Shown here: piece by piece, positions 11,413 to 14,673 of the stretch
How the letters are laid out: the number at the start of each line of letters is the position of its first letter
Position numbering within the stretch: position 1 is the first letter of the stretch
Assembly: GCA_017478205.1 (NCBI GenBank)
Contig: JAFVDZ010000045.1
Location: forward strand, 1,080 to 65,079
Length of the DNA: 64,000 nucleotides
Reading direction: 5' to 3'
Source of the DNA: Spirochaetales bacterium
GTDB taxonomy: Bacteria; Spirochaetota; Spirochaetia; Sphaerochaetales; Sphaerochaetaceae
Notes under the pieces: model-generated
Databases searched by the model: none
What the model was told of the DNA's origin: nothing
The model's input: only the letters and a program-made list of their open reading frames with translations
Position numbers and translations under genes: made by a program

Positions 11413-11565
11413 AATATTGCCCTTCCTTATTATATTTGTCTGTTTTTTACTAGACGGTTTTGAATGTGCAGACATACTGCAACTCACTGAGTATAACAAT
11501 AAGCTGAGTGTTTGTCACGTACGTGAAATATAGTGATATTTAAAACTAAAGGAAAGAGATAAAAT

Positions 11566-11598
11566 AGCCTGTGCCAGATTTTTCTTCCTGCACAGGCT
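11566..11598 (-). terminator. Intrinsic terminator downstream of the RNA ligase gene
   Basis: AGCCTGTGC/GCACAGGCT 9-bp stem, T-rich tail on the minus strand. Confidence 0.7.
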
Positions 11599-11603
11599 TG
11601 AAT

Positions 11604-12647
11604 TCAATCTTTTTGCTTGATCAGGTAATCATTGTTGATCACCTTGAAAGAGAGCGGACCCATCAAAATAGGCGAGTAGACTGGAACAGTCGGTCTTATT
11701 ACTATTCCTTCTTTATTGTTGCCACTCTTATATTTTCCTTTAGCTCTTTCAATGAGTTCATCGACGGTTTTATAGGGAAGATTTGGTCCCGTCTCTTCAA
11801 CAGGTACCATATCTATTTTTGATGCCTCTGAGAAGATTTTTAGTTCTTCAAGACCAAGTCTTTTGTTCTTATCAAGATCGATAAGTGTAAAGACATACCA
11901 ATTGGGCTGAGATAGCTTCAATGGATTCTTCTGAATTCCTTCTCCACAGAACTCCCCCTGGACTGCAAGATTTTTGACACTCAGAGCCTTGGCTCCTGTC
12001 TGTATCTTCTCCTTTATTCCTTTTTTGTGAACAAATCTCCAGGCAGGACTTGTTTCATCATCCGCAAGTTCATAGTTGCGTGAGCATACACCAAAACTTT
12101 CGTCTATTAGATACATGGTGACACTTGTGCCATCCATCTTTGTAGAGATGTAATATTCACGATTGTCGAATTCCTTGATGATTTCAGGAATCTCCTGAAC
12201 TCTTGTTTCATCTGTCTTTGGAATACCACCGGGGAAATCTCCGATTATCTTGCCACTTCCTGTAGCAATTTCAGCTATCTCCCATTTCTTTACGCCTAAG
12301 AAAGAGGCAACAGATTCACCAACTTCCCACTTCCTATTGCTCTCACCAAGTATTGAGAGAGGCAGTACAAGTCCCTGTGAAATCTGTCCTCGGAATGTGC
12401 GAGTTCTGATAAGGAAGCCTTCGCCATTGATATCATTCTTCTTATAGCATCCATTTCGAAGGAATTCGAATTTCTCATCGATTGGCAAGAAGGCATCTAC
12501 TTCGAAATAGACGCAGATATCACCTTTCTTGAAATCACCTTTCTTCGCAACACACTTCCATCCGAGTACAGAAACAAGCTCTATCTTGTCTGCTCCCTCA
12601 ATTGGCTGGATGTCCCAAATTACTTGTACACTTGCTAACTTTCTCAT
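11604..12647 (-). CDS. ATP-dependent RNA ligase, DRB0094/Rnl5-like family
   Basis: N-terminal RKLASVQ..PIEGADKIE..VLGWKCV OB-like domain. Nucleotidyltransferase motifs KMDGTS, QGEFCG, EGIV and FKVIN. AAAGGAG RBS. Confidence 0.9.
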   Translation of the reverse strand: MRKLASVQVIWDIQPIEGADKIELVSVLGWKCVAKKGDFKKGDICVYFEVDAFLPIDEKFEFLRNGCYKKNDINGEGFLIRTRTFRGQISQGLVLPLSILGESNRKWEVGESVASFLGVKKWEIAEIATGSGKIIGDFPGGIPKTDETRVQEIPEIIKEFDNREYYISTKMDGTSVTMYLIDESFGVCSRNYELADDETSPAWRFVHKKGIKEKIQTGAKALSVKNLAVQGEFCGEGIQKNPLKLSQPNWYVFTLIDLDKNKRLGLEELKIFSEASKIDMVPVEETGPNLPYKTVDELIERAKGKYKSGNNKEGIVIRPTVPVYSPILMGPLSFKVINNDYLIKQKD

Positions 12648-12678
12648 CTTGTCTCCTTTCTTCTTTTGCAATATAAAA

Positions 12679-12716
12679 GGCATCAGAGCTCCCTCGGGGA
12701 CTAGGAGACTGATGCC
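12679..12716 (-). promoter_or_regulatory. Terminator-like hairpin in the RNA ligase 5' leader (attenuator)
   Basis: GGCATCAG...CTGATGCC 8-bp stem followed by TTTTAT, about 30 nt before the ligase start. Confidence 0.6.
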
Positions 12717-12758
12717 AAAGGCAAATAATTGTCTTAGGGAGAAAAAAAAAGATAGTTT

Positions 12759-12815
12759 TCAGAGCTGGTAGCTAGAGAGAATGGAATGACACGCTATCAG
12801 CTCTGATTGCATCAT
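12759..12815 (-). CDS. Putative 18-aa leader peptide MMQSELIACHSILSSYQL upstream of the RNA ligase
   Basis: Strong AAGGAGG RBS. The ORF coincides with a hairpin (CAGAGCTGATAG/CTACCAGCTCTG) that competes with the downstream terminator. Confidence 0.5.
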   Translation of the reverse strand: MMQSELIACHSILSSYQL

Positions 12816-12862
12816 CTTTCCTCCTTCAAGGATATGATGACGCATATGGAAAGATATTTCAT

Positions 12863-13192
12863 TCAACTTGCAGTTGAATTTAAACTGCCTATCCTATAGA
12901 TAATTACAGGCTCACAGATTTCAATATCTTCTACCTGTTTTGTAATATAAAGTTCTTCAACGTGACAGTTGTACAATTTTGAAAGCAGCGTGAGATGCTC
13001 AAGGCGTGGAATACTTTTATGTTTTTCATTTTCCCATGCGTAGATAGCTGTAGGTGTCTCAAAGCCAAAAACTTCCTGCAGATCCTTGATGGAATAGCCA
13101 TTCTTGATTCTTAGCTCTTTTAAAAGTCTAGAGGTCTTTATGTAATCAATGATATAAAAAATACGTGTATGAAATGAATTGCTGTATTCCAT
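12863..13192 (-). CDS. XRE/Cro-family HTH transcriptional regulator
   Basis: LKELRIKNGYSIKDLQEVFGFETPTAIYAWE...IPRLEHLTLLSKLY HTH_3 pattern. Confidence 0.9.
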   Translation of the reverse strand: MEYSNSFHTRIFYIIDYIKTSRLLKELRIKNGYSIKDLQEVFGFETPTAIYAWENEKHKSIPRLEHLTLLSKLYNCHVEELYITKQVEDIEICEPVIIYRIGSLNSTAS

Positions 13193-13239
13193 ACACGTAT
13201 TATAACGCAATTTTCTATGTTGGGACATTCAACTGCTAG

Positions 13240-14673
13240 TTAACAAATGCTATCCCTGATCTTTCTGATCCTATCTACGAGTCTATCAAGATGAGCTGTT
13301 GTCAATGCAGGATTAAGTAGTGTGAACTTCAGCATCGTAACTCCATCCTTTACTGTCTGGCCAATTACAGTACCCTCACTTAAAAGAACTCTTCTTATCT
13401 TCTTGTTTACTTCGTCACTTGTCCTGGTTGCAAAGACAACTGAACTGATTTCAGGCTCGACAGGGCAGATGAATGCCTTGTCGTCCTTAAGAAGGTCATA
13501 GAGGTATTTTGCATTCTCGACAGAGTGGTCAATTATCTTGCCAAAGCCATCCTTTCCTCTGCAGACGAAACTGACATATACCTTGATGGCATCAGCTCTT
13601 CTAGTTGTCTGCATAGACTTTCCAACAAGGTTGATGTATCCATCCTCCTCATCTTCTTCTCTGTTGAGGTAATCTGCATGGAGCTCGAAGCAATCAAGAA
13701 GACTCTTGTCCTTTACAAGTACACATGAGCAGCTGATAGGGAGGAGGAACATCTTGTGGAAATCGATCGTGATAGAATCACAGAGAGAAACATCGCCAAG
13801 GCGGTATCTGTACTTATCGCTCATCAATAGTCCTGAGCCATAGGCTGCATCGGCATGCAGATGCATGTGATACTTGTCACAGAGCCTTCTCATTTCACCA
13901 ATATCATCAATTGAACCAAAATCGGTAGTTCCGAGTGTTGCAACAGCACAGAATGGAATGAAACCTTTCCTGACATCTTCTTCTAGCAACTTTTCAAATG
14001 CCTTGATATCAACCTTTTCCTTATCATCTACAGGAAGCTTTCCTACAGCTTCGTATCCTAGTCCCAGAATATGGCAGGCTTTGTCCATAGAGAAGTGGGA
14101 GATTGAGGATGTGTAGAGTTTGAGTTTCCTGTAGCATTCAGGAAGCCCATACTTCTTCACATCGTATCCCAGCTCTTTCTTGCAGAAGCTGTCGCGGGCA
14201 GCGATGATTGCGCTGATATTCGATTGGGAGCCACCACTTGTGAAGTTGCCATCGCCGTTCTCAAAACCGACAAGCTTTGCAAGGCGATCAAGTACAGCTA
14301 CCTCCATTTCAGTTGGAAGAGGGGACTGGTCCCAACTGTCCATCGAATCATTGAAAACTGAGATTATCAACTCGGCTGCAATCGATTCAAGGAGAGCAGG
14401 GGAGTGGAGGTGTGGCATGTAATCTGTTGACCAGGTTTTCAGCATGTGAGGGAGAAAATCCTTCACATTCTCTAAAGTCTTATCAAATCCCAAACCCTCT
14501 TCAGGAAGAATTTCAAGCTTGTTTACCTTTTCTCTCAACACAAGAGGATCGATACCAGAGAAGGCACTCTCATCCTTGATGGAAGTCAAGATTGCATCGA
14601 GAGTTTTCATTATCATGCTTCTGAATTCATCCTTTACCTTCTGATCAGATGAAAGAACTAGAGAATTTGCCAT
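13240..14673 (-). CDS. Group II PLP-dependent decarboxylase (diaminobutyrate decarboxylase-like)
   Basis: HLHSP, SGGSQSN, SHFS, ATLGTTDFGSIDD, HADAAYG and SITIDFHK (PLP lysine). Confidence 0.85.
   Translation of the reverse strand: MANSLVLSSDQKVKDEFRSMIMKTLDAILTSIKDESAFSGIDPLVLREKVNKLEILPEEGLGFDKTLENVKDFLPHMLKTWSTDYMPHLHSPALLESIAAELIISVFNDSMDSWDQSPLPTEMEVAVLDRLAKLVGFENGDGNFTSGGSQSNISAIIAARDSFCKKELGYDVKKYGLPECYRKLKLYTSSISHFSMDKACHILGLGYEAVGKLPVDDKEKVDIKAFEKLLEEDVRKGFIPFCAVATLGTTDFGSIDDIGEMRRLCDKYHMHLHADAAYGSGLLMSDKYRYRLGDVSLCDSITIDFHKMFLLPISCSCVLVKDKSLLDCFELHADYLNREEDEEDGYINLVGKSMQTTRRADAIKVYVSFVCRGKDGFGKIIDHSVENAKYLYDLLKDDKAFICPVEPEISSVVFATRTSDEVNKKIRRVLLSEGTVIGQTVKDGVTMLKFTLLNPALTTAHLDRLVDRIRKIRDSIC

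Follow-up and report, generated by a model that had tools for sequence, protein, structure and literature searches.

The window, by which we mean the whole stretch of 64,000 nucleotides that was analysed, belongs to the genome of a Treponema-family gut spirochaete. It carries on its minus strand a gene for an Xre-type HTH protein followed by a gene for an RNA ligase, and the two are separated by a spacer of 215 nt, hereafter the leader (Table 1). An earlier description of this DNA (the original prediction) had assigned the downstream gene to the Rnl5 type, and the assignment holds: residues 1-347 of the product align to residues 4-339 of NgrRnl (5cot_A; E = 5e-56), with TKMDG placed opposite VKLDG, and Pfam recognises both PF21189 (E = 2e-32; PHA02142 OB domain) and PF09414 (E = 5e-25; RNA_ligase). 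The score on TIGR02306, the DRB0094 family, is just above the cutoff (152.5 bits vs 151.15). Judged by these similarities, the gene encodes a true Rnl5 ligase. Enzymes of this family seal 3'-OH/5'-PO4 nicks in duplexes; their physiological role has been called uncharted, and loss of DraRnl results in sensitivity to ionising radiation (PMC5397189). In the literature we found no leader or attenuator described for the Rnl5 family. PADLOC offered no defence-system model for the ligase and returned only weak generic HTH matches for the HTH protein.

The HTH protein is given 109 aa by gene callers, and its homologues in other Treponema (45-66% identity) adjoin ligases or defence-type genes. Related ligases from other Treponema (69-73% identity) also have an HTH gene adjacent and lie in varied, defence-island-like surroundings, among them Schlafen/AlbA ATPase, type I restriction and WYL/PARG genes. 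Downstream of the T. ruminis orthologue lie two calcineurin-like phosphoesterases and an RF-1-domain protein of 136 aa, a neighbour that leaves room for a link between this ligase clade and translation. A sister species (G005; trigger factor 91% identical) is without positions 11557-13249 of the window, and there the stop of the PLP-decarboxylase gene runs straight into the terminator which in the window stands after the ligase. Since the sister species lacks the unit, the HTH gene, the leader and the ligase gene form a 1.65-kb cassette lying between that gene and its ancestral terminator. No healing enzyme is encoded in the cassette.

Table 1. Features of the HTH-leader-ligase locus, in window coordinates and in the order of transcription.
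Feature	Positions	Strand	Remarks
Perfect -10 hexamer TATAAT	13199..13204	minus	7 nt before the HTH ATG; no good -35
Inverted repeat ACGTGTAT-N20-ATACACGT, then UUUUUU	13156..13198	minus	RNA hairpin -15.0 kcal/mol; HTH start codon inside
Xre-type HTH gene, 109 aa (121 aa from the ATG at 13228)	12863..13192	minus	Pfam HTH_3, E = 7e-11
ORFa, 16 codons, MKYLSICVIISLKEER	12812..12862	minus	AUG abuts the HTH stop (UGA then AUG); HTH reading frame
Hairpin A	12808..12844	minus	-17.9 kcal/mol; SD and both AUGs of the 18-codon ORF inside
18-codon leader ORF MMQSELIACHSILSSYQL	12759..12815	minus	Stop UGA 12761-12759
Hairpin B (segments 1 and 2)	12759..12806	minus	-19.8 kcal/mol
U9 run, then CUCCC	12737..12750	minus	Predicted anti-SD; pairs with the purine-rich ligase SD region
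Hairpin C (segments 3 and 4; 8-bp outer stem, 5-bp inner stem), then UUUUAUAUU	12670..12716	minus	Probable intrinsic terminator
Ligase SD AAGGAG (12658-12653) and start ATG (12647-12645)	12645..12658	minus	N-terminus MRKLAS common to orthologues, aligns with NgrRnl
Rnl5-family ATP-dependent RNA ligase, 347 aa	11604..12647	minus	N-terminal OB domain and nucleotidyltransferase domain; KxDG motif as TKMDG
Intrinsic terminator after the ligase, AGCCUGUGC...GCACAGGCU and UUUUAUCUC	11556..11597	minus	Counterpart of the sister-species decarboxylase terminator

Fold and small reading frames of the leader

The leader is predicted to fold far more stably than expected from its composition, with a minimum free energy of -70.4 kcal/mol vs -50.2 +/- 4.2 kcal/mol for dinucleotide shuffles (223 nt; z = -4.8), and none of 200 shuffles did as well. 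Three hairpins account for its main features. Hairpin B is the structure that the original prediction had drawn between segments 1 and 2, and we found it as an inverted repeat of 12806-12793 with 12772-12759 (14 nt, 93% complementary). The pairing of segments 3 and 4 had been described in the same place as a hairpin followed by TTTT, and is indeed a perfect repeat (12716-12709 with 12686-12679; 8 nt, 100%) which continues into UUUU, within TTTTATATT at 12678-12670. The resulting hairpin C has an energy of -20.2 kcal/mol in the haplotype of the window and of about -19 to -23 kcal/mol overall. Hairpin A, which is absent from the original description, pairs the SD of the leader ORF with UCCUU and its AUGAUG with CAUCAU. 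The stems of the leader repeats hold three G-U pairs vs one A-C mismatch. The arms are 19-22 bp apart in all three repeats and also in the repeat at the HTH promoter. An in-frame AUG (12683) lies inside hairpin C, with GGGAG 5 nt upstream of it.

Further downstream, the U-run and the CUCC tract are predicted to pair with the SD region of the ligase gene, and in the full-length leader the unpaired probability of this SD is at most 0.14 in all four haplotypes folded. The pairing of poly-U with polypurine is of low complexity, and the length of the run varies from U6 to U9 among strains.

Other classes of element were considered for the leader. An Rfam 15 scan (E up to 10) gave as best matches eukaryotic miRNA and lncRNA models at 22 bits vs gathering thresholds of 50-85. 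An origin of hairpins B and C by tandem duplication was rejected: arms 2 and 4 have the 8-nt direct repeat AGCUCUGA in common, but it is not significant by local alignment (p = 0.15). Readings as an integron attC site or a MITE-type repeat were likewise discarded: the leader has no second copy in the genome, and there is no integrase in the vicinity.

Two short reading frames overlap within the 5' half of the leader. The AAGGAGG ribosome-binding site and the 18-codon ORF of the original prediction are both present, with the SD at 12826-12820, four bases and then ATGATG at 12815-12810, which leaves 7 nt to the second AUG. The SD and the AUG are predicted to be locked in hairpin A (-17.9 kcal/mol), with an unpaired probability of at most 0.04. 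In order to judge the motif we counted AAGGAGG-N3-8-ATG across the genome: of 96 occurrences, 69 begin ORFs of 60 aa or longer and 27 begin shorter ones, vs about 16 of the latter expected by chance (a rough estimate). Because chance would supply about 16 of those 27, the motif alone is no proof of translation. The peptide has no homologue. By inspection it contains no single-amino-acid run, hence no regulatory codons, and none of the arrest motifs known from TnaC, ErmCL, SecM or MifM could be recognised. A type I toxin was also considered; the 18-aa peptide is too short for this and not hydrophobic. The second frame, ORFa, lacks an SD, and it closes with a UGA that overlaps the AUGAUG at the start of the 18-codon ORF. 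Ribosomes that terminate on the HTH gene and reinitiate on ORFa would, if such a relay operates, melt hairpins A and B.

Terminator-like hairpin C and promoters

Hairpin C is the strongest of the 21 sites recovered in a window scan (128 kb) for hairpins at or below -10 kcal/mol with a U-tract directly adjoining them. A generic terminator scan considered only loops of up to 8 nt and hence missed it. With GGCAUCAG...CUGAUGCC and the tail UUUUAUAUU, hairpin C combines a stem of 8-9 bp with a large loop and a tail of the type UUUUAU, a form shared by the terminator downstream of the ligase gene and by the decarboxylase terminator of the sister species. The U-tract exists only in the minus-strand sense, and the whole element ends 17 nt upstream of the ligase SD. 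Hairpin C with its U-tract is thus probably an intrinsic terminator, and the terminator that the original prediction had placed before the ligase is borne out to the extent that a strong terminator-like hairpin of the local form stands there.

By consensus scan and inspection, no sigma-70-like site was found on the minus strand between 12862 and 12648. This negative result carries little weight, as the presumed HTH promoter escapes the same scan. TTGGCA was also considered as a sigma-54-like site and set aside for want of a -12 TTGC element. Upstream of the HTH gene, TATAAT (13204-13199) is probably the promoter of a leaderless HTH mRNA; it was omitted by the consensus scan because its -35 match is too poor. 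The inverted repeat that follows it, taken together with its U-tract, is a pattern with one match in the window and 0 in 100 shuffles, and could act on decarboxylase transcripts as an entry terminator, serve as an operator, or do both.

The hexamer TATATT (12675-12670), which lies in the U-tract of hairpin C, could serve as the -10 of a -35-less promoter of the ligase gene. On this basis the leader might be only the long structured 3' UTR of the HTH mRNA with its terminator, the ligase being expressed, with or without an activator, from a separate promoter that overlaps hairpin C. The hexamer matches 5 of the 6 consensus positions and would leave a 16-nt 5' UTR with an SD, but it has neither a -35 match nor a TGn extension and sits in a T-rich terminator tail, where chance matches are expected. 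That the HTH promoter is also without a -35 suggests that such promoters may work in this organism, and the ligases of relatives have a regulatory region of their own (operator palindromes directly upstream at the loci L046 and L047, divergent HTH genes at L041 and L047); a separate promoter would, however, leave the conserved hairpins A and B and the anti-SD pairing unexplained. We give this arrangement a small chance.

Variation within the species and search for the leader elsewhere

Eight contigs of the same species were available for comparison. The leader varies among them by four substitutions and the U6-U9 length change, and none of these falls in the stems of A, B or C. Diversity is lower than at the flanking third codon positions (4/215 vs 36/609 sites; P about 0.005), and the 5' half with both mini-ORFs has 0 segregating sites out of 111 (P about 0.001 vs the pooled third positions). 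When compared with the third positions of the HTH gene alone (3/109), the difference is not significant for the whole leader (P = 0.30) and is at P = 0.047 for the 5' half. Hairpin A and the 18-codon ORF are invariant across the 8 contigs. We take these patterns as moderate evidence that the leader is under constraint within the species. The commonest polymorphism, 12708 U to G (5 of the 8 contigs), adds a G-C pair and thereby strengthens hairpin C, bringing its energy to -23.4 kcal/mol. In strain L088, the change C12688A falls in base pair 3 of 1:4 and interrupts this helix; the 8-bp stem of 3:4 remains intact.

Outside the species neither the ORF nor the pairings of the original prediction could be recovered: the leaders of the orthologous ligases at L003, L038 (T. 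ruminis), L041, L046 and L047 share none of them, a result that the original prediction had itself named as counting against it. L003, the closest co-directional orthologue, has an 80-nt spacer without such hairpins. A covariance model built on hairpins B-C (R1) gave only chance-level matches in 258 genomes of the family (best E = 0.026). By DNA search there is no second copy of the leader in its own genome and none in 19 genomes of the genus; one 33-nt match in the genus was discarded, as it lies inside an ABC-transporter ORF. The leader pattern was found neither in a scan of one JGI metagenome nor in phage and plasmid collections, and IMG/VR contained only ligases at 33-42% identity. In a search of 5.8 billion proteins there were no relatives of the ligase between 99% and 73% identity and none of the HTH protein between 98% and 66%. 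As far as these sequence searches reach, only one species has the leader. Within it all paired positions are invariant, and outside it no homologous leader occurs, so that the pairings show no covariation.

The narrow distribution would accord with a leader that has no regulatory function, in which the hairpins are fortuitous products of cassette assembly such as leftover terminators or decayed gene fragments, and L003 does manage with its 80-nt spacer; the lack of significance of the 2/4 repeat also fits. Such an origin would account neither for the excess stability of the fold (z = -4.8) nor for a polymorphism that is reduced relative to the flanking third positions and avoids the stems, and we regard it as very improbable.

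The surroundings of the related ligases raise another alternative, in which the inverted repeats act in DNA, as operators or roadblocks for the adjacent HTH protein. Upstream of the ligase, the palindrome GGTCRCAAWTTGYGACC occurs in four copies at L047 and one copy at L046, as is typical of HTH operators, and T. ruminis has a different inverted repeat there, with 16-bp arms. The 19-22 bp spacing that the leader repeats share with the repeat at the HTH promoter would also suit a common binding protein. In the window, however, GGTCRCAAWTTGYGACC is absent even with 3 mismatches allowed, the arms of A, B, C and the promoter repeat have no common consensus, and the leader contains no promoter to be controlled. 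Half-sites 28-34 bp apart would be unusual for an HTH dimer, and the G-U pairs together with a strand-specific U-tract fit function as RNA. We therefore consider control through DNA operators extremely improbable.

Candidate switches and control of the ligase gene

The original prediction had noted that segment 1 is perfectly complementary to segment 4, and a perfect 9-nt complement was found (12807-12799 with 12690-12682; 9 nt, 100%). The duplex reaches -16.8 kcal/mol when two further G-C pairs are counted. From this it had been proposed that segment 2 is masked when a ribosome lingers close to the stop of the 18-codon ORF, so that 1:4 forms and blocks 3:4, and that stalled or slowly terminating ribosomes would in this way induce the ligase. 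When the upstream 143 nt are shuffled, only 0.26% of the shuffles offer the 3' arm of the terminator a contiguous complement of 9 bp or more, but when partners are compared by duplex energy, one as good as 1:4 arises in 8.6% of shuffles. Classical antiterminators capture the 5' arm of the terminator. The best partner of that arm in the leader is the strand with the SD and AUG (-14.5 kcal/mol), which is at chance level (p = 0.12), and an antiterminator of this type was rejected. Since 1:4 uses the arm transcribed last, it must outcompete segment 3, already made and adjacent, and formation of 1:4 would thus be kinetically unfavourable; the helix would, in addition, have to bridge about 108 nt around the ribosome.

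We modelled the ribosome as a mask on the leader in a transcript cut at 12679. With the mask on codons 14-19, P(3:4) in the haplotype of the window drops from 0.99 to 0.41-0.77 and P(1:4) climbs to 0.15-0.56, which speaks for the switch. In the haplotypes with G at 12708 (5/8 contigs), P(3:4) stays at 0.94 or above at every ribosome position and P(1:4) does not exceed 0.03, and in L088 the 1:4 helix carries a mismatch. The proposed entry of ribosomes has a strong and well-spaced SD and a stretch of 111 nt, spanning both mini-ORFs, that is free of polymorphism, but SD and AUG are buried in hairpin A. In an extended version, ribosomes leaving the HTH gene would reinitiate at ORFa and then at the 18-codon ORF, and hairpin A would be melted in passing; the junction at which the HTH stop meets the AUG of ORFa and the overlap of its UGA with AUGAUG could relay them. 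Ribosome-stalling attenuators are known elsewhere, in PA5471.1-armZ of Pseudomonas aeruginosa (PMC12057347) and in the tylosin-induced yxjB of Bacillus subtilis (PMC6851288), and the RF-1-domain protein in a row with the T. ruminis ligase would accord with a cue from translation. Against these points, the ORF has neither an arrest motif nor regulatory codons, and nothing of the arrangement is conserved in the orthologous leaders or in the 258 family genomes. Release of segment 1 by a ribosome at the leader stop is thus not upheld as originally proposed, with the start region buried and 3:4 persisting in 5 of 8 contigs, and we think it unlikely that the leader works in this way.

The more specific idea that the leader senses damage to translation fares no better, as we found nothing showing that damaged ribosomes are sensed. 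Ribotoxin cuts leave 2',3'-cyclic-P/5'-OH ends, which need healing enzymes first. Such unhealed breaks are a misfit to the nick chemistry of Rnl5 enzymes (PMC5397189), and the cassette brings no healing enzyme with it. Nothing in these data points to ribosome damage in particular as the cue.

Another conceivable arrangement is an attenuator worked by a relay of translation. Translation would pass from the HTH ORF to ORFa, melting hairpin A, and on to the 18-codon ORF, and a pause at the end of the latter, before the anti-SD, would both tip 3:4 towards 1:4 and unmask the ligase SD. Ligase synthesis would in this case follow the state of translation, such as slow termination or stalled ribosomes. 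We attach only a slight probability to this.

Our preferred reading is that the leader is a species-specific cis-acting RNA, gated by a terminator and masking the SD, through which the ligase is kept low, and we put its probability at roughly 0.5; that the leader is functional and terminator-gated is, in itself, likely. Transcription would start at the HTH promoter, and because no promoter is evident between the HTH and ligase genes, transcripts must cross the leader. Most of them would be terminated at hairpin C and its U-tract (12716-12670). In those that read through, pairing of the U-run/CUCC tract (12750-12737) with the ligase SD would add a translational block. Hairpins A and B with the overlaid mini-ORFs are the likely site of any conditional input, for which the most plausible candidates would be ribosomes arriving from the HTH ORF through the abutting UGA and AUG and then through the overlap of UGA with AUG.

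With the role of the family uncharted (PMC5397189), a regulatory signal on an Rnl5 gene may serve as a clue to the substrate of the enzyme. Here the ligase and an Xre-type regulator travel together in a small cassette, and the leader should keep the enzyme tightly limited. If the relay of translation through the mini-ORFs proves true, it would be the first regulatory input described for the Rnl5 family and would hint at a translation-related RNA substrate. Since a single uncultured gut Treponema species is the whole range of the leader, no general rule for the family follows from it alone.

Among known systems, the internal attenuators of the rplL-rpoB type offer a first comparison. In E. coli, a partial terminator stands between rplL and rpoB. 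The likeness lies in a Rho-independent terminator between co-directional genes, of which the distal one needs read-through and is expressed at a lower level. In contrast, the spacer described here carries, besides its terminator, two strong hairpins, a pair of overlapping mini-ORFs and an anti-SD tract, and it belongs to a recently acquired two-gene cassette, not to a conserved operon.

The armZ, yxjB, trp and his leaders resemble ours in several respects: an SD precedes a short ORF, a terminator stands immediately before the gene, and there is an alternative pairing that would exclude this terminator. They differ in that here it is the 3' arm that would be captured, the start of the ORF is locked in a hairpin, and regulatory codons and an arrest motif are missing; moreover, the switch is thermodynamically viable only in a minority of strains of a single species. 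Like the ermC and ermB leaders, the latter having two leader peptides (PMC8274638), our leader is predicted to mask the SD and AUG of the downstream gene, and it has more than one small ORF whose translation could open the structure. The erm leaders, however, have no terminator and depend on a drug-specific arrest of the nascent peptide, of which nothing comparable is recognisable here.

As an enzyme, the ligase is akin to DraRnl and NgrRnl, being a full-length member with the OB and nucleotidyltransferase domains and the lysine motif. The genetic settings are different: DraRnl (DR_B0094 of D. radiodurans), which is induced by radiation, heads an operon of two genes whose other member encodes a DEDDh-like protein (PMC5397189, PMC4408790), whereas the ligase described here follows an Xre-HTH gene in a cassette that has the appearance of a mobile unit.

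The cassette and its possible control signals

The HTH gene (encoding an Xre-type regulator), the leader and the gene for the Rnl5-family RNA ligase form a single 1.65-kb cassette that is missing in the sister species G005. It lies between the stop codon of a PLP-decarboxylase gene on one side and the ancestral terminator of this decarboxylase, which now serves the ligase, on the other.

Positions of the features described in the text
Feature	Location	Strand	Details
Cassette	window 11557-13249
TATAAT and inverted repeat	window 13156-13204	minus	perfect TATAAT
ORFa (MKYLSICVIISLKEER)	window 12812-12862	minus	AUG immediately after HTH stop (UGA|AUG)
U-run	window 12742-12750		between hairpins B and C
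Internal AUG (12683)	window 12681-12693	minus	in-frame, within hairpin C; GGGAG 5 nt upstream
Genes after orthologous ligase	L038 2021-6053		172-aa protein without family match; two calcineurin-like phosphoesterases; 136-aa RF-1-domain (ArfB-sized) protein
Palindrome GGTCRCAAWTTGYGACC	L047 2246-2500; L046 120-163		four copies in L047, one in L046; between HTH gene and ligase

The TATAAT stands 7 nt upstream of the HTH ATG, a distance that suggests a leaderless HTH mRNA. Downstream of it we found an inverted repeat (ACGTGTAT-N20-ATACACGT) followed by U6, with the HTH start codon inside the repeat. Acting as RNA, this repeat would terminate transcription reading in from the decarboxylase gene, and in transcripts begun at the TATAAT promoter it would be truncated. 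Acting as DNA, it could be an operator for the HTH protein.

Possible translation signals in the leader

The UGA of ORFa overlaps the AUGAUG that opens the 18-codon leader ORF. Judged from these junctions, ribosomes leaving the HTH stop codon could pass by termination and reinitiation to ORFa and on to the 18-codon ORF, in a relay running through hairpin A. The in-frame AUG and GGGAG of hairpin C repeat the layout of hairpin A, in which a stem sequesters both the SD and the AUG, and some gene callers take this AUG as the ligase start, yielding a 359-aa protein. The homopolymer U-run varies from U6 to U9 across same-species contigs, which may reflect real slippage or assembly noise.

Related regulators and ligases

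The neighbours of the closest HTH homologues (loci L053 and L056) are RloB/AAA_21 genes, and Bro-N/YhcG_C plus PTH2 (peptidyl-tRNA hydrolase) genes; these differing neighbours indicate that the regulator family goes with cargo of several kinds, either defence-type or linked to translation. Within the genus, six genomes (L015-L020) carry a second, distant family of Rnl5-like paralogues (384-424 aa, ~30% identity), and a G+C-rich hairpin (GGAACCCCTC...GAGGGGATTCC) was seen upstream of the paralogue in L015 and L018.

At two Treponema loci with orthologous ligases, L047 and L046, the palindrome copies are likely to be operators through which a repressor controls Rnl5. In Treponema ruminis (L038), the genes downstream of the orthologous ligase follow at gaps of 2-60 nt, and the row looks like an operon for RNA repair and ribosome rescue.
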